Shown here in pieces: positions 1,765-60,500 of a DNA stretch of 64,000 nt. The stretch's first letter is position 1. The number at the start of each line of letters is the position of its first letter. The DNA is taken from the NCBI RefSeq assembly GCF_058153355.1, contig NZ_CM177019.1, one strand, 5' to 3'. Below the pieces are notes generated by a model. The model made no database searches. It was given only the letters and a program-made list of their open reading frames with translations, and had not been told where the DNA came from. A program made the translations under genes and the position numbers.

Positions 1765-3210
1765 ATGGAACTTCGAAATAAGAAATTAACCCATGACGAA
1801 TTCATGACCGAGCGGCAACAGGTATTGAAAACCTGGGAAACCGGCAAGGATGTTGAAAACTTTGAAGATGGCGTTAAATACCAACAAACCATTCCTGAGC
1901 ATAAACGCTTCTCTCATGCCCTGCTGAAAGCAGACAAGGAAGGTAAAACCCTTAGCCAACCGCGCGCAGGCGTGGCGCTGATGGACGAACACATCGAACT
2001 ACTGAAAACACTACAAGAAGAGTGCGATCTGCTGCCGAGCACTATCGATGCATATACCCGTCTGAATCGGTACGAAGAAGCGGCTGTAGGGATTAAAAAA
2101 TCCATCGAAGCCAGAACCTCTAAACTGAACGGTTTACCGGTAGTTAACCACGGCGTCGCAGCTTGCCGTCGCCTCACCGAAACTCTGCAAAAACCGCTAC
2201 AGATCCGCCACGGCACGCCAGATGCGCGTCTGCTGGCTGAAATCTCGATGGCCAGCGGCTTTACCAGTTATGAAGGCGGCGGCATTTCCTACAATATTCC
2301 GTATGCCAAGCGCGTAACGCTGGAAAAATCGATCCGCGACTGGCAGTACTGCGACCGTTTAATGGGGATGTATGAAGAACACGGGATCCGCATCAACCGC
2401 GAACCGTTTGGCCCACTAACGGGTACGCTGATCCCGCCGTTTATCTCGCACTCTATCGCGATAATCGAAGGCTTGCTGGCACTGGAACAGGGTGTGAAAT
2501 CTATTACCGTTGGTTATGGACAGGTCGGCAGCCTGACGCAGGATGTCGCGGCGATCCAGTCTCTGCGTGAACTTGCACACGAATACTTTCAGAGCTATGG
2601 CTATACCGACTATGAATTAAGTACCGTATTTCACCAGTGGATGGGCGGCTTTCCGGAGGACGAATCGAAAGCGTTCGCCATTATCTCCTGGGGTGCTGCC
2701 GTCGCGGGGATGTCTGGTGCTACCAAAGTCATCACCAAAAGTCCGCACGAAGCCTGGGGCATCCCGACTGCTGCTGCCAACATTCAGGGGCTAAAAGCCT
2801 CCCGCCAGATGCTCAACATGGTCAACGAGCAGAAATTCCCGCCGTGCCCGGCGGTTGAACTGGAAATTGAACTGATTAAGAGCGAGGTTCGCGCTGTACT
2901 GAACAAAGTGTTCGAACTGGGTAATGGTGATATTGCGCGCGGTACGGTGCTGGCATTTGAAGCGGGCGTACTGGATGTACCGTTTGCCCCAGCCGCCTGC
3001 AACGCAGGCAAAATTCTTCCGGTCCGTGACAACACCGGCGCGATACGCGTACTGGAAGCCGGAGCCGTTCCATTGCCAAAAGATATTCTCGACCTCCACC
3101 ACGATTACGTTGCTGAACGCGCACGCTTTGAAGGACGCCAACCGACATTCCAGATGGTTGTAGATGACATCAATGCTGTATCCCACAGTAAATTAATAGG
3201 AAGACCATAA
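1765..3210 (+). CDS. glmE: Glutamate mutase large (epsilon) subunit / methylaspartate mutase E
   Basis: 481-aa ORF of the expected size and operon position between glmL and methylaspartase. Confidence 0.8.
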   Translation: MELRNKKLTHDEFMTERQQVLKTWETGKDVENFEDGVKYQQTIPEHKRFSHALLKADKEGKTLSQPRAGVALMDEHIELLKTLQEECDLLPSTIDAYTRLNRYEEAAVGIKKSIEARTSKLNGLPVVNHGVAACRRLTETLQKPLQIRHGTPDARLLAEISMASGFTSYEGGGISYNIPYAKRVTLEKSIRDWQYCDRLMGMYEEHGIRINREPFGPLTGTLIPPFISHSIAIIEGLLALEQGVKSITVGYGQVGSLTQDVAAIQSLRELAHEYFQSYGYTDYELSTVFHQWMGGFPEDESKAFAIISWGAAVAGMSGATKVITKSPHEAWGIPTAAANIQGLKASRQMLNMVNEQKFPPCPAVELEIELIKSEVRAVLNKVFELGNGDIARGTVLAFEAGVLDVPFAPAACNAGKILPVRDNTGAIRVLEAGAVPLPKDILDLHHDYVAERARFEGRQPTFQMVVDDINAVSHSKLIGRP

Positions 3211-4451
3211 TGAAAATAAAACAGGCCCTTTTCACCGCTGGCTACTCTTCATTCTATTTCGATGACCAGCAGGCGATAAAAAACGGAGCGGGTCACGACG
3301 GCTTTTTTTATACCGGAGAGCCGGTAACACAGGGGTTTAACGCCGTACGTCAGGCCGGGGAGTGCGTTTCGGTTCAGTTGATTCTGGAAAACGGTGCGGT
3401 CGCCGTAGGCGACTGTGCTGCCGTACAGTATTCCGGGGCAGGCGGTCGCGATCCACTGTTCCTCGCAGAGCACTTTATTCCGTTCCTCAACGACCATATC
3501 AAGCCATTACTGGTAGGCCGCGATGTGGATGCTTTCCTGCCGAATGCCCGTTTCTTCGACAAATTGCGTATTGACGGAAACTTGCTGCATACCGCCGTAC
3601 GTTACGGATTATCACAGGCGCTGCTTGATGCTACCGCGCTGGCAACCGGCCGTCTAAAAACTGAAGTGGTCTGTGATGAATGGCAGTTGCCACGCGTGGC
3701 GGAATCCATTCCATTATTTGGTCAGAGCGGCGACGATCGATATATCGCTGTCGATAAGATGATCCTTAAGGGCATCGACGTGCTACCTCATGCGCTGATT
3801 AATAACGTCGAAGAGAAACTGGGCTTTAAAGGAGAAAAACTGCGCGAATATGTCCGTTGGCTATCCGATCGGATTCTAAGCAAACGCACCAGCGCACGCT
3901 ACCACCCTACCCTGCACATCGATGTATACGGCACTATTGGTCTGATCTTCGATATGGATCCGCTTCGCTGTGCGCAATACATCGCCAGTCTGGAAAAAGA
4001 GGCGCAAGGCCTGCCGCTCTACATTGAGGGGCCGGTCGATGCCGGTAACAAGCCCGATCAAATTCGCCTGCTGACCGCGATTACCAAAGAGCTGACGCGC
4101 CTCGGTTCCGGCGTGAAAATTGTGGCCGATGAATGGTGTAACACCTACCAGGATATTGTTGATTTCACTGATGCCGCCAGTTGCCACATGGTGCAAATCA
4201 AAACCCCGGATCTGGGCAGTATTCACAACATCGTCGATGCAGTTCTTTATTGCAACAGCCACAGCATGGAAGCGTACCAGGGCGGCACCTGCAATGAAAC
4301 CGATGTCAGCGCCCGCACGTGTGTCCACGTCGCCCTTGCCGCTCGCCCTATGCGTATGCTGGTAAAACCGGGGATGGGCTTTGACGAAGGCCTCGATATC
4401 GTCTTCAACGAAATGAATCGTACTATCGCGCTGTTGCAGGCTAAGGATTAA
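3210..4451 (+). CDS. mal: 3-Methylaspartate ammonia-lyase (beta-methylaspartase)
   Basis: 413-aa ORF, same length as clostridial methylaspartase, enolase-superfamily-like. Start overlaps the glmE stop. Confidence 0.8.
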   Translation: MKIKQALFTAGYSSFYFDDQQAIKNGAGHDGFFYTGEPVTQGFNAVRQAGECVSVQLILENGAVAVGDCAAVQYSGAGGRDPLFLAEHFIPFLNDHIKPLLVGRDVDAFLPNARFFDKLRIDGNLLHTAVRYGLSQALLDATALATGRLKTEVVCDEWQLPRVAESIPLFGQSGDDRYIAVDKMILKGIDVLPHALINNVEEKLGFKGEKLREYVRWLSDRILSKRTSARYHPTLHIDVYGTIGLIFDMDPLRCAQYIASLEKEAQGLPLYIEGPVDAGNKPDQIRLLTAITKELTRLGSGVKIVADEWCNTYQDIVDFTDAASCHMVQIKTPDLGSIHNIVDAVLYCNSHSMEAYQGGTCNETDVSARTCVHVALAARPMRMLVKPGMGFDEGLDIVFNEMNRTIALLQAKD

Positions 4452-15089: not shown

Positions 15090-15275
15090 GTCACCCGTAG
15101 GCCTGATAAGACGCGCAAGCGTCGCATCAGGCATCGCGTGTCGGATGCGGCGCGAGCGCCTTATCCGACCTACATTGATGGTCCCCGTAGGCCTGATAAG
15201 ACGCGTCAGCGTCGCATCAGGCTTCAATTGCCGGAGAAAGCGATAATGCCTCATCCGGTCTACAGTGCAGGTGAA
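15090..15275. repeat. REP/BIME palindromic elements in the sucB-sucC intergenic region
   Basis: Repeated gcctgataagacgcg...cgtcgcatcaggc and ggatgcggcg palindromic units. Confidence 0.8.
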
Positions 15276-19476: not shown

Positions 19477-19762
19477 ATTTCCTGCATTTCTTTTGTAGGC
19501 CGGATAAGGCGTTCACGCCGCATCCGGCGCTGTTTGCCTGATGCGACGCTTGCGCGTCTTATCAGGCCTACGATTCCTGCATTTCTTTTGTAGGCCGGAT
19601 AACGCATTCACGCCGCATCCGGCACTGGTTGCCTGATGCGACGCTTGCGCGTCTTATCAGGCCTACGATTTCTGCATTTCTTTTGTAGGCCGGATAAGGC
19701 GTTCACGCCGCATCCGGCACTGGTTGCCTGATGCGACGCTTGTGCGTCTTATCAGGCCTGGG
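19477..19762. repeat. Three tandem copies of a ~95-bp REP/BIME unit in the sdhB-sucA intergenic region
   Basis: Unit tctgcatttcttttgtaggccggataaggcgttcacgccgcatccggc...gcctgatgcgacgcttgcgcgtcttatcaggcctac repeated head-to-tail three times with a few substitutions. Confidence 0.85.
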
Positions 19763-37143: not shown

Positions 37144-38562
37144 TCAGGCTCCTTTCCTCGCTTCTTCGTACGCTGCCAGCGTTCGCAGCCTTGCCTCTTT
37201 GTGATCAACTATCGGTTGCGGATAATCCAGCGTCACACCTGCTTTCTGCGCCCACTTCCACGGTTCATGCACCGCTTTCCCTGGTACATCACGCAACTCT
37301 GGTAACCACTGGCGGATAAACTCACCTTCGTGGTCAAATTTCTCGCCCTGAGTTGTCGGGTTGAAAATACGGAAATACGGTGCAGCATCAGTTCCAGTAG
37401 AAGCCGCCCATTGCCAGCCACCGTTATTGGCTGCCAAATCACCATCAATCAGTTGCGACATGAAATATCGCTCGCCTTCCCGCCAGTCGATCAGCAAATC
37501 TTTCACCAGAAAACTGGCAGTAATCATCCGCAGGCGATTATGCATCCAGCCAGCGCTGTTAAGCTGACGCATGGCCGCATCAACAATCGGGTATCCCGTT
37601 TTGCCTTCCTGCCAGGCCTTTAAATGCGCGGGATTGCTTTGCCACTGTACGCGATCGGTCCAGGCAATAAAGGGGCGATGCTTACACAGTGACGGGTGAT
37701 ACGTCATCAAATGACGGTAGAACTCGCGCCAGATCAGCTCATTAAGCCAGACGCTACCCGGTCCGCCTTCCAGCGCCTGCGGCTGTTCCGCCAACAGGCG
37801 ATGCAGACACTGGCGAGGCGATAACCTACCCGTTGCAAGGCTTGCAGACAAACGGCTGGTGCCTTCCACTGCCGGAAAATCACGCTGCTGATCGTACTGA
37901 CTCGCACCGTTCTGGCAAAACTGGCGTAATTGCGCAATCGCCGCTTTTTCTTCCACCGGGAAATGCGCGGTATCGAAAGACTGACGAGGGTAATTCAGCG
38001 TAATAGATGGCGCGGGATCTAATGATCCGCTACTCCGAACTTTTGGCGCAGCGACGCACTCCGGCATCCCTTCCCGCAGCCGTTTCAGCCAGGCATTCTT
38101 AAAAGGCGTAAAGACTTTGTACATCTCATGATTGCCAGTCATCACCGCCCCCGGCGGCAGGATCACGCTGTCATCGAACCCTTCACACACCACGTTACTC
38201 AGCGCTCTTTCAACTTCCACATCCCGCGCCCGCTCATTCACCTCATACTGATAGTTATAAAACAGATGGGTAACACGATTTTCCGCGCACACCTGTTTAA
38301 CTATTTCGACGCTGGCGGCAAAGTCATCCACTTCATGAAACAGCAAAGGAATGCCTTTTTCCGCCAGCGCGATTTGTAGCCCGTTCAGTTGTGCATTGAT
38401 AAATTCAGCCTGACGCGGCGACATATTATGCGCCGCCCACTGGCGTGGTGTAGCGATATACAACGCCAGCACGCGTGCAGACGAATAGCGGCAAGCGGCC
38501 GCCAGCGCGAGATTATCATGCAGACGTAAATCCTGGCGAAACCAGACCAGATGGGTAGTCAT
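37144..38562 (-). CDS. phr: Deoxyribodipyrimidine photolyase
   Basis: 472-aa ORF starting MTTHLVWFRQDLRLHDNLALAAA. Confidence 0.95.
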   Translation of the reverse strand: MTTHLVWFRQDLRLHDNLALAAACRYSSARVLALYIATPRQWAAHNMSPRQAEFINAQLNGLQIALAEKGIPLLFHEVDDFAASVEIVKQVCAENRVTHLFYNYQYEVNERARDVEVERALSNVVCEGFDDSVILPPGAVMTGNHEMYKVFTPFKNAWLKRLREGMPECVAAPKVRSSGSLDPAPSITLNYPRQSFDTAHFPVEEKAAIAQLRQFCQNGASQYDQQRDFPAVEGTSRLSASLATGRLSPRQCLHRLLAEQPQALEGGPGSVWLNELIWREFYRHLMTYHPSLCKHRPFIAWTDRVQWQSNPAHLKAWQEGKTGYPIVDAAMRQLNSAGWMHNRLRMITASFLVKDLLIDWREGERYFMSQLIDGDLAANNGGWQWAASTGTDAAPYFRIFNPTTQGEKFDHEGEFIRQWLPELRDVPGKAVHEPWKWAQKAGVTLDYPQPIVDHKEARLRTLAAYEEARKGA

Positions 38563-39068
38563 AAAACTCCTGCATGGCGCAAGTTAATCACCCGCGGCCA
38601 AAGTTCGAAATAACGCTGCTCTGAAAGCCAGGCGTCAGGATAAAGCGCCATATAGTGTTTGATACGCATCAGCGGCGCAAGAAGCGGTTGCTCGCCACGG
38701 CGATAACTGTCGATAAGCGCCGCCAGCTGCTGGCGTTCTGTGGAATCAATATGTGGGCGAAAATAACCCTGAACGTGCATCAAAACGTTGGTGTGATCGC
38801 GCGGGTTGGCGGGATGAGAAAGCAAAACAATGACGCGTTGGCGGTACTGGTTGTAATAGTCATCCAGATTTTGCCACTGGTGAATATCAGCCACAAACGG
38901 GCCAAGTTTGCGGTATTCCGGCTGGGAATGAGCCAGAAAGACGAGTTTATAGCGGCTGTGATAATCGTTGAGCGCCCCGCGCGTTAAGCCATGTTCTTTC
39001 AGTCGATGTAACTCATAAAGCGCGAAGATACGGATTAAAGTGCTTTCATCAAATCGTTGCTGATTCAT
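38559..39068 (-). CDS. ybgA: DUF1722-family protein
   Basis: Start placed at MNQQRFDESTLIRIFALYEL, giving 169 aa; overlaps the phr start. Confidence 0.9.
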   Translation of the reverse strand: MNQQRFDESTLIRIFALYELHRLKEHGLTRGALNDYHSRYKLVFLAHSQPEYRKLGPFVADIHQWQNLDDYYNQYRQRVIVLLSHPANPRDHTNVLMHVQGYFRPHIDSTERQQLAALIDSYRRGEQPLLAPLMRIKHYMALYPDAWLSEQRYFELWPRVINLRHAGVL

Positions 39069-39153
39069 TACTGCTCCTGAACGGTTTACAGGAGTAAGTG
39101 TAGACGTTGGCAAATGATGTTTGTGAAGTTAATCCTGTTGTAGCAGGGCAAGA

Positions 39154-39977
39154 TTACGAAAGCACGCTCCCCGCAAGGACTGACGCCAGGTAGTTTCTGT
39201 CCATGGCTGCCCTTTCCATTCACACGTGAAATCAATAAGTTCATCAGGGACATCGCAAACAATGTGAAGACGGATTTCTTCTCTGCCGTGACTCTTTTCA
39301 CTAATTGCGTAACTGTCATGCTCTGGATTATTTAATTCTTTCAGTGAGAATTTTTCCTCAAAGGCTTTATTTAGCCGCCCCTGGTTTCCTTTTACAGCGA
39401 ATAAATAATCACCTCCCTGTTTTTGTATCTTCTCTGCAATATCTTTCTGGCAACCCATCGCATCAGTTGTGATGATTTTTCCTTTAATATCCAGCATGTT
39501 AAGAAGTTCAGGGATAGCTGTAATTTCATTTGATTTCTCATCCGTCCTGATCTGTCCGATGACCAGACTGTGCATTGTTGAGAACGCACTAATGACATGA
39601 ATCGCTCCCCTGCAGCGACTCTTGTCATAAGAATGCCGGAGCTTTTTTCCATCAATTGCAATGACGTCTTTATCATCTGAAGAATGGCAGTCACGCATCC
39701 AGTTAATAAAGCACTCGTGAAATTTTGCAGGACTGATACAGGATACAACTCTGGCAATGGTATCGTGAACAGGAATACCATTTTCAAAATCACCCTATTG
39801 CTTCAAAAAATCGAGATGTGTTTCCCCAAAATCCTCTATATCTTCTCAACCTTCTGCACCCGAAATAACGGCGCAAATAGTCAACAGTAGAATATCCGAT
39901 AATTTATGTTCCACTTTCCAGGCTTGTCTGTAATCGGGGATAATAGAAATATGTTCCATCAATTTTTTAAGTACCAT
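39154..39977 (-). pseudogene. H-repeat-associated (ISAs1-family) transposase pseudogene
   Basis: N-terminus [43 protein letters not shown] hits an in-frame TGA. Downstream frames carry [20 protein letters not shown]...[18 protein letters not shown] and the terminal [16 protein letters not shown], requiring a frameshift and an internal deletion after ...EWKG. Confidence 0.85.
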
Positions 39978-40370
39978 TTTGTTCTCCTTAATTATGTAAG
40001 GAGTATTTGATCATGTATAAGCAATAAAAAACAGCTTCAGGTAATGAGGAATATCTCAATTTTTAAACATAAAATGCGAATTGTTTAGTACAAAAAAGCA
40101 GCGTTACGTGATCTTTTCCTGCCATGGGTCTTTACCACAGCAGCTGGGGTTGTTTGGGACCGACTTCCGACAGCAGATCCCGGTGAGCCTGCCACCATCT
40201 CTTCACAAGCTTATGCTTATTACATGCAAAACGTCCCGTTTTGCATCTTTGTGCCTACGGCACACGATGATCTTTCCCTGAGGAGTCATACTTTGTTAGG
40301 ATAAAAAACCTTTAAATAGCTTTCCTACCTTCCAATAAAAACCACAGAATCAGCAATGTTTAAATTTCAA

Positions 40371-41192
40371 TCAGTATTGAGTTTCATTTGTGATCTCTAC
40401 ATTCACTCCTGATGGCTTCTCGCTAAATAAATATCTCATACTCTCATTCTCCATAATCACGGATATATTTAACCCTCCATGAATCCATTGATATGTAATA
40501 TTTTTATCATCAATCTTATAACTAAAATTCCCAATTGGTAACTTTTCCTTCAGATAATTATTCTCCTCATAACTAAGTGCTAGTAATTTATCATAGGCAC
40601 CTTTTAAATCAAAACCCTCAAAATAGCAATGTTCTTTTGATGAACCATCAAATTCTTTTCTGGGATTAGCATCATGACACCAAGTCGACCATTTTTCTTT
40701 TTTTTCCTCAGAAGTATGTTTTTTTTCATTGAAAAACAGCACATAATATTTCTCTGGGATTATTATCTGATCATTAATTTTTAAGATATCTCTATATGGC
40801 CCAGGACATTTATGAACAGAATCCATAATGGATATTTCTTCAGGAAAAAGTTTGCCTTCATGTTTAAATAATTTCCTGTACATACCAACTGTTGTTTGTG
40901 ATAAGTAATATGACAAGGGCTTTTTTTTAACTTCAACATAGTCAGTCGAGCATACGAGACTATTTTCCAATGAATAATCATTTATCGTTAGCTTTCGCCC
41001 ATCCATATTTATCACTACCTTACTGTATGTTTCATCAAGGGCACTTATTATAAGCGAATCATGTTTACCAAAAACATCGATATCTGAAACATTATGATAA
41101 ATCCATACGGTATTTTTAGTATTATCATTAGAATATGCGATACCATGAATAAAAAAAATCATTAGAAAGCCCATAAAAAATTTACCGCGCAT
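40371..41192 (-). CDS. Putative periplasmic immunity protein for the adjacent T6SS cell-wall-lytic effector
   Basis: 273-aa ORF with Sec-type signal peptide (MRGKFFMGFLMIFFIHGIAYS), Lys/Asn-rich, AT-rich codon usage, 19 bp downstream of the effector gene. No recognisable homology, so function is inferred from position. Confidence 0.6.
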   Translation of the reverse strand: MRGKFFMGFLMIFFIHGIAYSNDNTKNTVWIYHNVSDIDVFGKHDSLIISALDETYSKVVINMDGRKLTINDYSLENSLVCSTDYVEVKKKPLSYYLSQTTVGMYRKLFKHEGKLFPEEISIMDSVHKCPGPYRDILKINDQIIIPEKYYVLFFNEKKHTSEEKKEKWSTWCHDANPRKEFDGSSKEHCYFEGFDLKGAYDKLLALSYEENNYLKEKLPIGNFSYKIDDKNITYQWIHGGLNISVIMENESMRYLFSEKPSGVNVEITNETQY

Positions 41193-41211
41193 ACAAATTC
41201 CTTAATGTAAA

Positions 41212-43977
41212 TCAATGTGATGAATCATAAACATTATTCAAAAATAGATTTTGTTCTTTTCGGCGTCGTATAACAAGGCCAGCAACTCCGCCATTTGTAA
41301 TATCAAGAAATTCATTGGAGGCACCTATATAATCCTTTTGATTAAGTTTAGAATTCAAATTCGGTGCCTTACTCATGCTCCCCATATTAAACAATAAACT
41401 TATTAACGCATCAAATTCGTACTGATATAAATCCACACTCACTGTTCTTTTAAGCTCACTAACAAAACCAGATAAACGCTCTTCAAATAACTCATCAGCT
41501 TTAGCAATTGTTATTCCATGCTGAAATTCTTCTGGTAAAACTATATCATTGCAACGTTGTGTAGCAATTAAATGTCCATAACCTATAGTACAGTAACCTT
41601 CTGAATCATTATATGCTGTTAGTTGTAAATATTCCCATTCTTTTATAAAACCCTTACCTTTATTTGATACATTCAAATCTGCAATGGCGATCCTTTCAGC
41701 AGTTTGTTCTTCGTTAAAACTATTGATGTACCCCTCCATCAATATATCAATTGGATCATGTAAATCATCCCGTCTATAAAATGGAGGTATTTGTGTATTA
41801 TTCGGCGGAGGCGCTCCATTGTTTCCTGGATAGTATTCAAAATGCAACATATAAACCACTTCTTCCCCAGGGATTATAACTGGAGGCCTCCCTGTATCAG
41901 GTTTAATCATCAACCCTGTTTTGGCAATTATTGCCCCTTGCATAATATGATCATTAATCTTTACTAAAATACTTGATGGATCAACTTCACCATACCGCAC
42001 ATAGAAATGCCGACCATCTCTAGTCGAGTGCTCAATCGTAACTTGCCAAGTACCGTAATAGTATCGAGAAATAGCTCTTACTATTCCGTTGCAAACCGAA
42101 ACAATATCAGACTTCGGTTCCGTATATAGATCACGCGCTCCATGTTTTCTATTACCATTATTACGATTTCGTCCAAATATAGCTTGAGAGGCATTTCGAT
42201 CTGTCAAGGCAGCAGCCCAAAAATAATTTTTCCACTTTCCATTTTTGTCATTATTAGGTTTTACTTTTAAAGGAAAAATAATTTGATTTGATTTTTTCTG
42301 AGATAATGAATCTAAAAACACAACCGGATGAAAATGCCACACAGCATCATCACTATTAAACGGAGATACCCCGCTCATCCACTCCAGATCCAGCTGCCAC
42401 TTCTCACAGTATGCCACTTCCTCTGTATCCAGATCTTTATAAAATCCTTCCCACCGCCCTGTCGAGCGCCCTCCGTACCATTCGCTGTGGTGTTTAACTA
42501 TCAGATGATTCACCACATTTCTCACCAGTGGTTCACGCACGATCAGCGCCTGTCTGATCTCTTCCTCCGTCACTTTTCCATCACCGTCCTGATCCATACC
42601 CGCCATCAGCTCACGATAAAAGGGCGGTACCTGCTCATACAGCCACTCATCTCCCTGTTCTGCGGCACGGCTTATTGAGTCAAACGCTTCCGGCACCCAT
42701 CCTTCGTACGGGCTGTACGTCATGTCACCGCTGCTGTTCTCCTCCAGCGGTTGAAAACCCAGCTTCAGTAAATCATACTGTCCGGCCTCTTCAACATCCT
42801 TTTGTGGCAGCCAGCCGGTTCCGGTGATATTAAACCACCACTGCTGCGATTCATCCGTGACTGGTGTCGTGGCTTCCCGCGGAAGAACGCGCTGAGCACC
42901 CAGCGTGGCTGCGGTTGCGGTAAATACCTCCTGTCCCGGAACGGCCTGCCGGGTGTATAAAATTATCCCTTTTGGTGCCAGAACAGTCCGTTTTTCTCCC
43001 TTAACGCCTGCCGGGTTGGATAAGAACTTTGGCATATTCGGGTCTGTACTCAGAACCTCCAGATGGACGAACCACTCGCGCTCAATCTCACCGCTTCCCT
43101 CGCCAGGATAATCCTCGCATCCCATAAATCCGACCGGTGTTCCGGCACTGACTTTCCACTCTTCCGTTTCGTCGACCGTCTGTACCGAGTCAAAAATGCC
43201 TTTTGCCTTCGCCTTCTGCATCCACTCAGGCATCAGCATCTGTATTTCGCCATCTGACTCCATCAGATCCGGATCCAGGGTCACCCAGTACTGCTCATTC
43301 CCCGGTTTATTGCCTTCCAGCAGGCGAACCAGTCCGAATGTCGTCAGGACCGGCTGGCCGTTATTGGTCACGTAAAAACGTCCGGTCCGGGATGACACAA
43401 ACCGATCTCCCGCATTAAGTGTCCTGTTTCCGCTGATTTTCGGGGGTATCCAGTACGTGGCATGATCTCCGCTTTCCTGCCCCTCGGGAAGGCCGTTCTT
43501 TCCCGGGATGTATCGGTGCAGCAATATGCCACCATGCCCGGTTTTAACTTTATAGCAGGGGGAGCCGGGATAATCGTTCACCGGGGCCAGATGCATATAG
43601 AGACAGTAAAATTCCAGCCAGCTTTCTTTTTTTTGCGGGTCTGGCTGGCACTGCGATTTCACCAGAACAAATGTGCTGCTGTAACGGAGTTGCTGCCCTT
43701 TGTAGGGGCCTTTCAGGTAATCATTATTTATCCGGTACGCCGCAATGGTGCCATCGGCCATAAACTGAAGAGGAACCGGTTCTCCGGTAGCGGCGGTATC
43801 CGGTTTCAGGGCTGATAACGGATTAGACACGTCACTGATATGTATCCCGCCGTGCCACAGCCCGTTTCCACCCAGCAGCCAGGTTCCGTGCGCTTCTTTG
43901 TCAATAAGCCGCATTATCTCATCCAGTGAGCGAAACTCTTTGCCTTCTTTATCCCTGATGGGATGGCTGATTTTCAT
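41212..43977 (-). CDS. VgrG-linked T6SS effector with C-terminal T4-lysozyme-like (GH24) muramidase domain and internal M23-peptidase-like domain
   Basis: 921 aa. Residues ~770-915 align motif-for-motif with T4 lysozyme (KEWEYLQLTAYNDSEGYCTIGYGHL vs ...[24 protein letters not shown]; Glu/Asp/Thr triad positions present). Residues ~605-716 carry HGARD...MLHFEYY, resembling M23 HxxxD...HxH. EF-hand-like loop DQDGDGKVTEEE at residues 462-473. Start lies 9 nt after the vgrG stop with an AGGA ribosome-binding site. Confidence 0.75.
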   Translation of the reverse strand: MKISHPIRDKEGKEFRSLDEIMRLIDKEAHGTWLLGGNGLWHGGIHISDVSNPLSALKPDTAATGEPVPLQFMADGTIAAYRINNDYLKGPYKGQQLRYSSTFVLVKSQCQPDPQKKESWLEFYCLYMHLAPVNDYPGSPCYKVKTGHGGILLHRYIPGKNGLPEGQESGDHATYWIPPKISGNRTLNAGDRFVSSRTGRFYVTNNGQPVLTTFGLVRLLEGNKPGNEQYWVTLDPDLMESDGEIQMLMPEWMQKAKAKGIFDSVQTVDETEEWKVSAGTPVGFMGCEDYPGEGSGEIEREWFVHLEVLSTDPNMPKFLSNPAGVKGEKRTVLAPKGIILYTRQAVPGQEVFTATAATLGAQRVLPREATTPVTDESQQWWFNITGTGWLPQKDVEEAGQYDLLKLGFQPLEENSSGDMTYSPYEGWVPEAFDSISRAAEQGDEWLYEQVPPFYRELMAGMDQDGDGKVTEEEIRQALIVREPLVRNVVNHLIVKHHSEWYGGRSTGRWEGFYKDLDTEEVAYCEKWQLDLEWMSGVSPFNSDDAVWHFHPVVFLDSLSQKKSNQIIFPLKVKPNNDKNGKWKNYFWAAALTDRNASQAIFGRNRNNGNRKHGARDLYTEPKSDIVSVCNGIVRAISRYYYGTWQVTIEHSTRDGRHFYVRYGEVDPSSILVKINDHIMQGAIIAKTGLMIKPDTGRPPVIIPGEEVVYMLHFEYYPGNNGAPPPNNTQIPPFYRRDDLHDPIDILMEGYINSFNEEQTAERIAIADLNVSNKGKGFIKEWEYLQLTAYNDSEGYCTIGYGHLIATQRCNDIVLPEEFQHGITIAKADELFEERLSGFVSELKRTVSVDLYQYEFDALISLLFNMGSMSKAPNLNSKLNQKDYIGASNEFLDITNGGVAGLVIRRRKEQNLFLNNVYDSSH

Positions 43978-43986
43978 GTTCAGTCC

Positions 43987-46185
43987 TTATCGTGAGAATC
44001 TTCCCGGCCGTTGTGGCGGTACCTTATCCTGCTGGGGAGGATCAAAGGCTTCCTGTACACTTTTCCGTGGTGGCTCCGCCCCTTCAGTTCCAGGTCCGCC
44101 ATTGTCATAATCTGCCAGCGCTTTCAAAACCGCCGGTCGTAGCGTCGGCACCGGCGTTCCCGGACTACCGCCGCTATTGAGATTGATTTTCGGCCCGACG
44201 ATGTCCACGCCCCCTGAATGGATGACCACAAACGAACCACCCACCTTTAGGGTGATTTTACCGCCACTCTCCAGTACGATTTCATTCCGGACCTTCATTC
44301 CCAGCGCACCGGTAATCTTCCTCGCCAGGTCGCCCTTCACCTCCAGACTGTGCTTTCCCTCCACCAGGCTGATATGGTTCCCCGTCGTCTTATGCTCCTG
44401 CTTCCCTTCCACCGTCACTTTACGGTCGTTTCTGACATACAGGCCGTCATCGTGACTCACGCTCACCGTCCGGTCATTCGTCACCTTCAGCGTCTGGTCA
44501 TTACGTACCGTTATGCGCCGGTCGTTCGCCACCGTGATACTCTGGTCGTGACCCCCTTCTTTTCTGGTGCCGACCTCAACCGTCTGCCCCTTCACCACCC
44601 TTATCTTCTGGTCGTTACCGATGGTCTCCGTATGGTCATGCTTCACGTCCGTCGTCCGGTCGTTAAGCACCTCCGTGTCCATGTTCTTCTGCGCGTGGAT
44701 ATACACCTGCTCACTGTCCGTCGCATCCTCGAAACGCAGTTCATTAAAGCCGCTTCCTTTATAGGTCTTCGAGCGGATGGTCATCTGCGTCCGCGTGCCC
44801 GGTAAATCCCCCGGTGAACGGTTATCTTCATGGTAGGTCCGCCCCGTCACAATGGGCTGGTCCGGGTCGCCGTTCAGAAAGTCCACTATCACTTCCTGAC
44901 CCACACGCGGTATCGCCAGATTGCCGAACCCCGGTCCCGCCCATGCCTGCGACACCCGTATCCAGCACGAACTCTCCTCCGTCATCCCGTGATAACGGTC
45001 CCAGTGAAACTTCACCCGTACCCGGCCATGCTCGTCGCAGAATATCTCCTCACCCTTCGGCCCGGTCACGATGGCACTCTGCGGGCCGTCCACCTTCGGC
45101 TTCGGCAGCGGCGCGTGACGCCACGTCCTGTCTGCCGGTATCACCTCAAACTGATTGCTCAGTGTCGTCCCTTCACCGTGACTCCCGTGCAGCGCCTGCG
45201 GCTGTTCTCCCCGCAGTGTGCTTCCCACAACCTGCCATTCCCGGTTCAGCGTCTCTGAGGGATGGCCCGTCAGCCGGAACCGCGTTCCCGGCCACAGCCG
45301 CGCCGTGTTACACACCCCGCTCGCCGTCTCCGCCCCGTTCCGCCACCCTTCCGTCTGGTAACGCGCAAAATCCTGGCCATGCTGCTCATCCTTGAAACGC
45401 CCCGGATAATCAAATATCTCGTACTGCGTTCCCTGCCCGTTCAGGCTCTCCCCGTCATGGCTGTAGTACCCCGGCCACCCCGGCGTTTTGAACGTATAAT
45501 CCTGCGTCTCCACCGACGCCACGCTTATCTGCGCACGGTAACGAAACTCACTGATGTACTCCGTCGTTCCCCCGGTCGTGGTATTCGGGTTAAACGCCAG
45601 CGCCCCCATTCCCGTCAGCCCCGCCACGTCATCACACACCGCCAGCTTCTGCTCCGGCCCTTCCTGACCGCAGCGCTCATAAAAGAAGATACCTTCCTCC
45701 GCCCACAGCCGGGTCAGGAATGCCAGGTCGCTCTCCCCGTACTGCACGCAGAACTCCCGCGCCGGGTGCGCCTCATAGAACAGCGGCATCCACGCCGTCA
45801 CCCCGTTCTCTCTCAGAAGCTGTGCTGATATCGTCTGAATGTCCTGCTGCTGGAAGATACGGAAGTTCTGCCGTAACCCTGCCCGCCACAGCGGCGGGCT
45901 GATGCTCAGGGAATAACGCATCTGCCAGTCGTTGTTCTCACCGAGCTGCACCTCCGTCACGATACCGCTGACGTAACGCTGCGGGATATCACCCTGCCAG
46001 ACCGTCAGCACCGCGCTCTTCTCCAGAAAATCCTCCGCCATCAGGTCGGACAGCCCGCTGGCGATATCCACATCCAGGATGAACGACGTGCAGTGGTGCT
46101 GGTACAGACGGAAGCTCACCACCGCCGTCGCCATCTCCACGATACCGTCCACCGACAGCGTGAAACGTAATCCTTCTGAGGACAT
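43987..46185 (-). CDS. vgrG: Type VI secretion system spike protein VgrG
   Basis: N-terminus MSSEGLRFTLSVDGI and gp27/gp5-like VgrG sequence (FRLYQ..., ISPPLWRAGLRQNFRIFQ, EGIFFYE). The ORF track offers an upstream ATG at 46218; 46185 is preferred by comparison with typical VgrG N-termini. Confidence 0.9.
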   Translation of the reverse strand: MSSEGLRFTLSVDGIVEMATAVVSFRLYQHHCTSFILDVDIASGLSDLMAEDFLEKSAVLTVWQGDIPQRYVSGIVTEVQLGENNDWQMRYSLSISPPLWRAGLRQNFRIFQQQDIQTISAQLLRENGVTAWMPLFYEAHPAREFCVQYGESDLAFLTRLWAEEGIFFYERCGQEGPEQKLAVCDDVAGLTGMGALAFNPNTTTGGTTEYISEFRYRAQISVASVETQDYTFKTPGWPGYYSHDGESLNGQGTQYEIFDYPGRFKDEQHGQDFARYQTEGWRNGAETASGVCNTARLWPGTRFRLTGHPSETLNREWQVVGSTLRGEQPQALHGSHGEGTTLSNQFEVIPADRTWRHAPLPKPKVDGPQSAIVTGPKGEEIFCDEHGRVRVKFHWDRYHGMTEESSCWIRVSQAWAGPGFGNLAIPRVGQEVIVDFLNGDPDQPIVTGRTYHEDNRSPGDLPGTRTQMTIRSKTYKGSGFNELRFEDATDSEQVYIHAQKNMDTEVLNDRTTDVKHDHTETIGNDQKIRVVKGQTVEVGTRKEGGHDQSITVANDRRITVRNDQTLKVTNDRTVSVSHDDGLYVRNDRKVTVEGKQEHKTTGNHISLVEGKHSLEVKGDLARKITGALGMKVRNEIVLESGGKITLKVGGSFVVIHSGGVDIVGPKINLNSGGSPGTPVPTLRPAVLKALADYDNGGPGTEGAEPPRKSVQEAFDPPQQDKVPPQRPGRFSR

Positions 46186-46360
46186 ATAAACCCCATAGCT
46201 ACCGCACTCATGGTGCAAACCATACGGGCTTATAAGAAAGGCTTAAGTGAGATATCTGCCAGATAGCAACTATTAGGAAAATATTTATATATATTTCATG
46301 AATATATATTTCGGTTGGTATAACGGTGTCTAAATATTCCTCTGAACATCTTCCTGATAC

Positions 46361-46397
46361 AAAAAAACCGCCAGCGTCTCCGCTGGCGGTTTTCTTT
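46361..46397. terminator. Bidirectional intrinsic terminator downstream of ybfA
   Basis: A6-accgccagcg-tctc-cgctggcggt-T4 hairpin flanked by A- and T-runs. Confidence 0.8.
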
Positions 46398-60399: not shown

Positions 60400-60500
60400 A
60401 TGCGGCGTGAACGCCTTATCCGTCCTACAAAATAGTGCAAATTCAATATATTGCACCATCCTCGTAGGCCTGATGAACGTAGCGTATCAGGCTATCATAA
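60400..60500. repeat. REP palindromic elements
   Basis: gccggatgcggcgtgaacgccttatccg and aggcctgat...atcaggc palindromic units. Confidence 0.7.

Follow-up and report, generated by a model that had tools for sequence, protein, structure and literature searches.

A decayed H-repeat of the ISAs1 family and a group II intron fragment at the border of a vgrG island

Genes and features at the locus

The stretch of DNA analysed here, referred to as the window (64 kb in length), contains an accessory island at positions 39107-46360 (no strand assigned) that comprises vgrG, an effector gene, a 273-aa open reading frame (ORF) and a composite H-repeat. The vgrG gene (43987-46218, minus strand) encodes a VgrG (TssI) spike protein with matches to Phage_GPD (E = 2.3e-74), Phage_base_V and Gp5_trimer_C. 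It is followed by the gene for a 921-aa presumed T6SS effector (41212-43977, minus strand), which in Pfam shows a Peptidase_M23 domain that scores 27.4 bits and falls below its cutoff of 28.7, an EF-hand and a carboxy-terminal Phage_lysozyme domain (89 bits). The 273-aa ORF (40371-41192, minus strand) has no family match in Pfam or NCBIfam; in related loci it invariably comes after the effector with the lysozyme domain, and it is presumed, by position only, to encode the immunity protein of that effector. The island has the expected arrangement, in which an effector that contains a toxic domain comes after vgrG, and these Pfam assignments agree with the original prediction that an H-repeat flanks a T6SS cassette at this site, the role in secretion being presumed. 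Promoter and terminator scans returned sites no more numerous than in shuffled sequences. The first core gene to the right is ybgA (DUF1722; 38559-39068, minus strand), which was identified from the ORF list, the annotation and Pfam and is neighboured by phr (37144-38562, listed without a strand).

The bounds of the island follow from the Escherichia representative L018 (labelled 'E. coli'), which has no island at this site: the equivalents of window positions 46361 and 39106 lie 8 nt apart there, so that the ybfA terminator is 8 nt from the region upstream of ybgA. In K-12, homology across kdpF-ybfA reaches window position 46217 and is picked up again at the H-repeat, continuing through ybgA and phr, and the genes in between are rhsC-ybfB-ybfO-ybfC-ybfQ-ybfL. 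Other E. coli strains contain different Rhs or VgrG modules directly to the left of the left inverted repeat of the same remnant. Also, the cassette of the window is very similar to that of strain N96 up to the H-repeat (14 mismatches in 2737 nt, or 0.5%, across 42843-40107), as against 54 mismatches (3.4%) in the next 1611 nt rightwards from the left inverted repeat. Such a step in divergence points to a recombination breakpoint at the left edge of the H-repeat. The empty site, the module swaps and the divergence step together support the view, put forward in the original prediction, of a recombination-prone accessory locus that corresponds to the rhsC region of K-12.

The H-repeat itself (ISEc1-type, ISAs1 family) is a 978-bp remnant at 39144-40121 on the minus strand, recognized by BLAST comparison with H-rptB of K-12 and by the synteny of ybgA and phr. 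Its length is that of the 1291-bp H-rptB minus 313 nt. In the BLAST alignment, window positions 40121-39209 correspond to H-rptB positions 1-913 (96.3% DNA identity over 913 nt, gap-free) and window positions 39210-39144 to H-rptB positions 1225-1291 (97.0%). The remnant of the transposase coding sequence extends from an ATG at 39977-39975 to the stop codon of the original frame, a TAA at 39156-39154 (39154-39977, minus strand), and was delimited from translations and from Pfam and NCBIfam matches. For these profile scans both in-frame stop codons, described below, were repaired. The repaired product matches the Pfam families DDE_Tnp_1_assoc (E = 4.7e-34) and DDE_Tnp_1 (E = 1.1e-16), and also the NCBIfam model for ISAs1 family transposases (NF033564), with 292.9 bits against a cutoff of 70 (E = 2.7e-87), although only positions 1-229 of the 314 in that profile are covered.

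Both ends of the element coincide with the inverted repeats of H-rptB. The right terminal inverted repeat (IRR), which reads CAGGGCAAGATTA inward, lies at 39144-39156 on the plus strand, 76 nt from the ATG of ybgA; it was found by a motif scan and coincides with the end of the homology to H-rptB. The inner left terminal inverted repeat (IRL), CAGGAAAAGATCACG, lies at 40107-40121 on the minus strand; it emerged from the same kind of scan and consists of the 15 nt that precede a full intron in R32, N96 and AP025747. By manual count, IRR and the outermost 13 nt of IRL (CAGGAAAAGATCA, 40109-40121, minus strand) are alike at 10 of 13 positions. A degenerate version of the motif has only three matches in the entire 64-kb window, namely IRR, the inner IRL and an outer stub of IRL that is discussed below. 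No direct repeat that might represent a target-site duplication was seen beside the right end and either of the two left ends (inner or outer), an absence that is uninformative after rearrangements. With no flanking duplication, insertion of the element at this site by transposition is an inference and not shown directly.

The original prediction of a decayed H-repeat/ISAs1 transposase is thus borne out by the family models and by the 96% identity to an intact, yhhI-type H-repeat (H-rptB). It had placed the coding remnant exactly (39154-39977); the whole element is larger, and the terminal inverted repeats that it proposed to look for at the edges lie at 39144 and 40121. Transposase homology and inverted repeats at both ends are features that the element has in common with the ISAs1 family, and a complete element of about 1.3 kb with an intact ORF is what it lacks. 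It is evidently a remnant and not an active member of the family.

Lesions in the transposase gene and the ybfD locus

Three lesions were identified in the coding remnant. A TGA at 39846-39848 (minus strand) replaces W44, after the residues ISGAEG; the codon is TGG in all other compared copies, and GCA_015332025.1 has the same codon as the window. A TAG at 39795-39797 (minus strand) replaces Y61, after DFLKQ, where other copies have TAT. The third lesion is an out-of-frame internal deletion of 313 nt, whose junction with a 2-nt overlap lies at 39208-39210 (minus strand, break between 39209 and 39208), as defined by BLAST and by the coverage of the DDE profile. The deletion comprises positions 914-1226 of H-rptB, or about residues 257-360 of the transposase, and joins DFTCEWKG to a carboxy-terminal stretch in another frame that runs to the TAA at 39156-39154. 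The frame changes because 313 is 3 x 104 + 1 and hence no multiple of 3. At least three lesions had been predicted; their number was right, as were the TGA after ISGAEG and the deletion after EWKG, but the 'frameshift' counted among them is an effect of the deletion, and the second stop, the TAG at Y61, had been overlooked. A separate frameshift by a small insertion or deletion was rejected, since the alignment from the ATG to the deletion junction is gap-free against three other copies.

In the remnant, Pfam DDE_Tnp_1 is covered at positions 3-139 of 200, compared with 3-200 of 200 in intact YhhI, so the deletion takes away the carboxy-terminal third of the DDE domain of the transposase. Within the lost stretch lies HWHVENKLHWRLD, which we take to be the place of the catalytic glutamate in IS4-like DDE enzymes. 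With two early stops and a missing catalytic carboxy terminus, production of a transposase from the remnant would be impossible and the locus is probably enzymatically inert. Both ends are kept, and mobilisation in trans is conceivable. Recoding of the TGA and TAG codons was also considered and was rejected on three grounds: the two stop codons are different, the lesions in other strains are unrelated, and the catalytic carboxy terminus is deleted in any case.

The genes ybgA, phr and dtpD are also the neighbours of ybfD in K-12 and across thousands of E. coli genomes, where PGAP annotates a pseudogene, 'ybfD: ISAs1 family transposase', at the same place. We compared nine alleles of the ybfD locus (the window, GCA_015332025.1, K-12, R32_14_1F, N96, AP025747, 266917_2, GPEC1258 and KE55), and all nine have identical deletion end points (the H-rptB 913/1225 break) and the same right junction. 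The window copy therefore has both marks of a ybfD orthologue, namely the position and orientation upstream of ybgA-phr and the locus-specific 313-nt deletion. Because the deletion and the right junction are common to all of the alleles, they point to a single loss that predates either the split of the lineages or an exchange of the segment between them. The secondary lesions are different from lineage to lineage: W44* and Y61* in the window and GCA_015332025.1, a TAG at the W of FEWKG in K-12, E65* in 266917_2, Y16* in KE55 and a +1 frameshift in GPEC1258; the alleles of R32 and N96 have no secondary lesion before the junction. A deletion common to all, combined with secondary lesions that are lineage-specific, argues for one old deletion followed by independent decay in each lineage. 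On this evidence the dead insertion sequence is almost certainly ybfD, one of the copies of the ISEc1-type H-repeat (ISAs1 family) in Escherichia. The remnant is already known, as the ybfD H-repeat pseudogene is annotated in essentially every E. coli genome; ybfD of K-12 is the H-rptC3 of the older Rhs literature.

The genome itself belongs to Escherichia but lies outside E. coli sensu stricto: its dtpD-phr segment is 90-95% identical to that of nearly all E. coli genomes (5404 of 5423, with a best match of 97.6%). Among the matches listed in a search of genome contigs with the photolyase protein were two Escherichia representatives, E. albertii (92%/84% DNA identity) and one labelled 'E. coli' in which the site is empty.

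Pairwise dN/dS values over the first 256 codons range from 0.05 to 0.35, those among ybfD alleles being 0.1-0.3, and are not about 1; values so far below 1 count against a long-dead pseudogene evolving on its own. Nor are the 5' parts of the ybfD alleles most closely related to one another. The window copy, for instance, has a dS of 0.075 to yhhI as against 0.124 to ybfD of K-12, and the dS between ybfD of KE55 and the intact ISEc1 of GPEC1258 is 0.027. In our reading, the low dN/dS would reflect a 5' part that was replaced or converted by intact H-repeats, and not selection on ybfD.

Two other readings of the damaged gene were weighed. Each stop differs by a single base from the codon in other copies (TGG to TGA, TAT to TAG), as would be the case if both were errors of sequencing or assembly and the copy were no more damaged than other ybfD alleles. 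We consider the chance of this to be practically nil. The independent assembly GCA_015332025.1, which has 1 mismatch in 3813 nt relative to the window, contains the same bases at both positions, so the stops are not sequencing errors; moreover, the 313-nt deletion inactivates the gene by itself. Slightly more room may be left for a useful function of the remnant as a truncated, domesticated YbfD, such as a DNA-binding regulator or an inhibitor of transposition, although this too is very improbable. K-12 annotates ybfD as a coding sequence for a 253-aa 'H repeat-associated putative transposase YbfD', a 189-aa ORF remains in the window at 39129-39698, and dN/dS in the 5' codons stays under 1, all of which would suit a domesticated protein. 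However, any product of the window copy would lack the amino-terminal DDE_Tnp_1_assoc domain because of the stops at codons 44 and 61, the gene is interrupted at other positions by stops or frameshifts in other strains, PGAP calls it a pseudogene, and conversion from intact copies explains the low dN/dS equally well. Decay of a transposase gene, with the 5' part probably refreshed from intact H-repeats, is the reading that we prefer.

The composite left end

The left end of the H-repeat is duplicated and interrupted, an arrangement that the original prediction had overlooked together with the intron fragment in it. On the minus strand the order is: the flank ending in GTATGACTCCT; a 15-nt stub of IRL, CAGGGAAAGATCATC (40266-40280, minus strand); a 144-nt segment running from GTGTGCCGTAGGCAC to GTAAAGACCCATGG (40122-40265, minus strand); the inner IRL; and the body of the H-repeat, beginning with TAACGCTGC. 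The outer stub, found by the motif scan, is a direct repeat of the inner IRL at 12 of 13 positions and represents exon 1 of an old intron insertion. The 144-nt segment abuts the inner IRL and is assigned to the 5' end of a group II intron of the E.c.I9 type by Rfam and by alignment with REL606. It begins with GTGTG at 40265-40261, which is the 5' consensus of group II introns (GUGYG), it matches RF01999 (group-II-D1D4-2) at 40196-40079 on the minus strand with 42.9 bits (gathering score 36), and it aligns collinearly with the beginning of the full introns in R32 and N96. The D5/D6 domains and the intron-encoded reverse transcriptase are present in those two strains, and the window contains no match to RF00029 and no reverse transcriptase ORF. 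The segment is, judged by its sequence, a fragment and not an intron.

By manual reading of the alignment, the fragment in the window differs from that in REL606 by 3 mismatches in 144 nt. The REL606 fragment (NC_012967, 242510-242668; 159 bp, 98% identical to the reference) is catalogued as E.c.I9-tr2 (PMC3522654, Tables S2/S3), and the assignment of the window fragment to the E.c.I9 type is indirect in that it uses these published coordinates for REL606. The introns E.c.I2 and E.c.I9 specifically target the Rhs insertion sequences ISEc1-5 at two positions (Leclercq and Cordaux 2012, PMC3522654). The intron scrap is one of an already catalogued type.

Several genomes clarify the history of this homing site. 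In R32_14_1F a full intron follows exactly 15 nt of the left end, with an ltrA pseudogene, a match to RF01999 (93.1 bits) and D5/D6 domains (RF00029, 62.8 bits). N96 and AP025747 have the arrangement of the window, with the inner site filled by a full intron; the homing site of the window, at 40107/40106, is therefore unoccupied. The 3' junction of the intron is ambiguous by one base, the occupied site reading CTCAC T TAACGC and the empty site CACG TAACGC. The position at which E.c.I9 homes is 15 nt into the H-repeat from its left end, and the inner site, empty here, has probably been re-occupied in N96 and AP025747. The combination of stub, intron fragment and IRL is not confined to this locus: about 2500 E. 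coli genomes have it in front of ydcC as well, and REL606 has it in front of an intact H-repeat. A pattern scan of the genome contigs for an intron/IRL junction with a variable gap gave no matches. A literature search on H-rpt elements and group II introns, and on ISAs1 together with H-repeats and Rhs, gave no hits. In addition, the composite element is bracketed by an inverted repeat with arms at 39052-39066 and 40347-40361 (13 of 15 positions); the start of ybgA contains one of the arms, and the repeat is most likely due to chance.

How the composite end arose can be approached from its junctions. Relative to the window and N96, which have no extra intron nucleotides, the junction in ydcC has 3 and that in REL606 has 15, and the H-repeat side of all three variants is the first base of IRL. 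Just 3' of the junctions the intron contains CAGGGGGAACGATCA, which resembles IRL (CAGGGAAAGATCA). In-register unequal crossing-over between IRL and this IRL-like intron motif was rejected as a source of the junctions, none of the three being an in-register hybrid, and so was a plain deletion inside an occupied allele, which cannot recreate a complete inner IRL. The composite left end may best be understood as the scar of an older event that joined an H-repeat end to the interior of an intron-occupied H-repeat. Such a scar could have formed if one H-repeat inserted itself into an intron that sat in another and the two H-repeat bodies then recombined; an end-precise adjacent deletion is the alternative.

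A different possibility is that the composite of outer stub, intron fragment and H-repeat is a mobile H-repeat variant that transposed as one unit by means of the outer stub, with the junction variants produced by end-precise activity of the transposase (adjacent deletions, or repeated insertion beside the IRL-like intron motif). The same architecture does occur at three unrelated loci, namely kdp-phr, ydcC/RhsE and the yafV-ivy interval of REL606, and the homology among them begins exactly at the outer stub in each case; the constant H-repeat side of the junctions, their variable intron side (0, 3 or 15 nt) and the nearby CAGGGGGAACGATCA would also follow. Against this, no target-site duplication was seen, the loci covered are a handful, and a single event with small deletions afterwards, or recombination among H-repeats, could give the same picture. 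We regard unit transposition as unlikely. The broader proposal, that an ISEc1-type H-repeat transposase acted on these ends in nature and moved a composite of H-repeat and intron scrap, through end-precise adjacent deletions or repeated insertions beside the IRL-like E.c.I9 motif, is a doubtful one to about the same extent. If true, it would provide sequence-level evidence of both activity and target preference for an H-repeat insertion sequence. We know of no report of H-repeat transposition and, to our knowledge, transposition of this family member in E. coli has not been observed. A scar of an older joining event is the explanation that we favour for the composite left end.

Present role and comparison with known elements

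The present role of the remnant would be a passive one. It may amount to a repeat that marks the invariant right edge of an island in which vgrG or rhs, effector and immunity genes can be swapped, and it is likely to be a homing site for E.c.I9 as well. The remnant is the fixed right limit of the ybfA-ybgA hot spot, where Escherichia strains swap Rhs/VgrG toxin cassettes, and the 313-nt deletion common to its alleles is a handy marker of the island border. The nested scars of insertion sequence and intron illustrate the use of insertion sequences by group II introns as safe homing sites. The value of the analysis lies mainly in a correct annotation, and current understanding is unchanged.

The closest intact relatives of the remnant are H-rptB/yhhI and ydcC of E. 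coli, which are ISEc1/ISEc5-type elements of the ISAs1 family with a length of 1291 bp and a 378-aa transposase. The window copy is 96-97% identical to them at the DNA level, with the inverted-repeat ends and the start of the ORF in common. In contrast to the window copy, which lacks 313 nt and has two stops in addition, yhhI and ydcC conserve the intact 378-aa ORF and a complete DDE_Tnp_1 domain. The left end of ydcC, as in the window, consists of stub, intron fragment and IRL.

The counterpart in K-12 is ybfD (b0706), the H-repeat of the RhsC region beside ybgA, which has the same position, orientation, deletion end points and right junction as the window copy and is 94.7-94.9% identical to it in DNA sequence. 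The two differ at the left end: ybfD of K-12 lacks the first 24 nt and is fused to the right end of ybfL, whereas the window copy keeps the left inverted repeat and has the intron fragment in front of it. The island upstream is also different, being a vgrG cassette in the window and the array from rhsC to ybfL in K-12.

At the level of the island, the locus resembles the orphan vgrG-effector-immunity islands and the Rhs arrays with displaced tips of Enterobacteriaceae, which likewise combine VgrG, a cell-wall-degrading effector, a small unannotated ORF and an H-repeat boundary. Unlike the Rhs arrays, the island in the window has no Rhs core. N96 and AP025747 show a related arrangement, in which a second H-repeat 5' fragment lies between a VgrG-pyocin DNase module and a truncated (551-aa) copy of the same effector. 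Finally, the intron fragment is comparable to the catalogued E.c.I9-tr1 and E.c.I9-tr2 (PMC3522654), which are also 5' fragments located in Rhs-associated insertion sequences, 15 nt inside the left end. On its 3' side the window fragment is 15 nt shorter than that of REL606 (E.c.I9-tr2) and 3 nt shorter than that of ydcC, and it occupies a different locus from E.c.I9-tr2.

Intron remnant at the left end of the H-repeat

Directly upstream of the H-repeat remnant, on the minus strand, window 40122-40280 holds a 144-nt 5' fragment of the group II intron E.c.I9 together with a duplicated 15-nt H-repeat left end. The inner homing site of the remnant (40107/40106) is unoccupied in the window; E. coli strains N96, AP025747 and R32 each have a full intron at this position. 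The junctions between the intron and the left inverted repeat (IRL) differ at all three loci compared, with 0 (window 40122), +3 (ydcC locus, L005 ~4013-4025) and +15 nt (REL606, L097 ~3155-3170) of intron kept relative to the window; in every one of them, the break point is the first base of the IRL. An IRL-like motif, CAGGGGGAACGATCA, lies within the intron just 3' of the three junctions.

In KE55 (L016 ~4330-4420), a diverged sequence (TAGGCACAAAGATGCAA...), similar to the 5' end of the same E.c.I9-type intron, is found upstream of the ybfD IRL, where the annotation gives an IS630 pseudogene. The 3' junction of the intron contains an ambiguous base, since the occupied alleles of R32 and N96 (L001 7111-7120; L004 7111-7120) read ...CTCAC-T-TAACGC and the empty alleles of the window (40100-40110) and REL606 read CACG-TAACGC at the corresponding site. 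The two possibilities are that ...ACT is the 3' end of the intron or that an additional T is present at occupied sites.

Divergence of the ybfD alleles

H-repeat codons 1-256 were compared across the window, L001-L005, L014-L016 and L097. Among the ybfD pseudogene alleles in this set dN/dS is 0.1-0.3, and these alleles do not form a clade apart from the intact H-repeats. The low dN/dS, together with the non-monophyly, suggests that ybfD alleles may have undergone gene conversion from intact H-repeat copies.

Other repeats and small RNA matches

A 15-nt inverted repeat (13/15 matching; window 39052-39066 and 40347-40361) stands on either side of the composite H-repeat, with one arm within the ybgA start codon region, and is probably due to chance. 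Elsewhere in the window, four naRNA4 (CssrE, REP-type) repeats at 15100-15170 and 19498-19758 score above the gathering score of Rfam RF02564, and an Rfam match to the ES036 (CssrF) sRNA at 60429-60471 reaches 45.5 bits, where the gathering score is 37.6.

Island content and cassette exchange

Downstream of the lysozyme/M23 effector lies a 273-aa open reading frame (window 40371-41192) that has no match in Pfam or NCBIfam. The product, presumably the immunity protein, starts with a stretch that resembles a signal peptide (MRGKFFMGFLMIFFIHGIAYS). An Escherichia representative genome, 'E. coli' SCPM-O-B-8794 (L018 9440-9460), runs from the ybfA terminator to ybgA without any island (compare window 39106 and 46361), and thus shows the site of the 7.25-kb island in its empty state.

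In N96, AP025747 and related genomes, the 921-aa effector is cut to 551 aa by a second H-repeat 5' fragment of 419 nt, 93.6% identical to H-rptB, the intact K-12 element (L004 11746-12163; L006 3924-4341; also L009, L011 and L012), which stands between the shortened effector and an upstream VgrG-pyocin S DNase and immunity module. When the window is compared with N96 (42843-38501 against L004), divergence is 0.5% within the cassette and rises to 3.4%, with the step exactly at the H-repeat left end. The exchange of the cassette between lineages is therefore younger than the divergence of the core genes that flank it.
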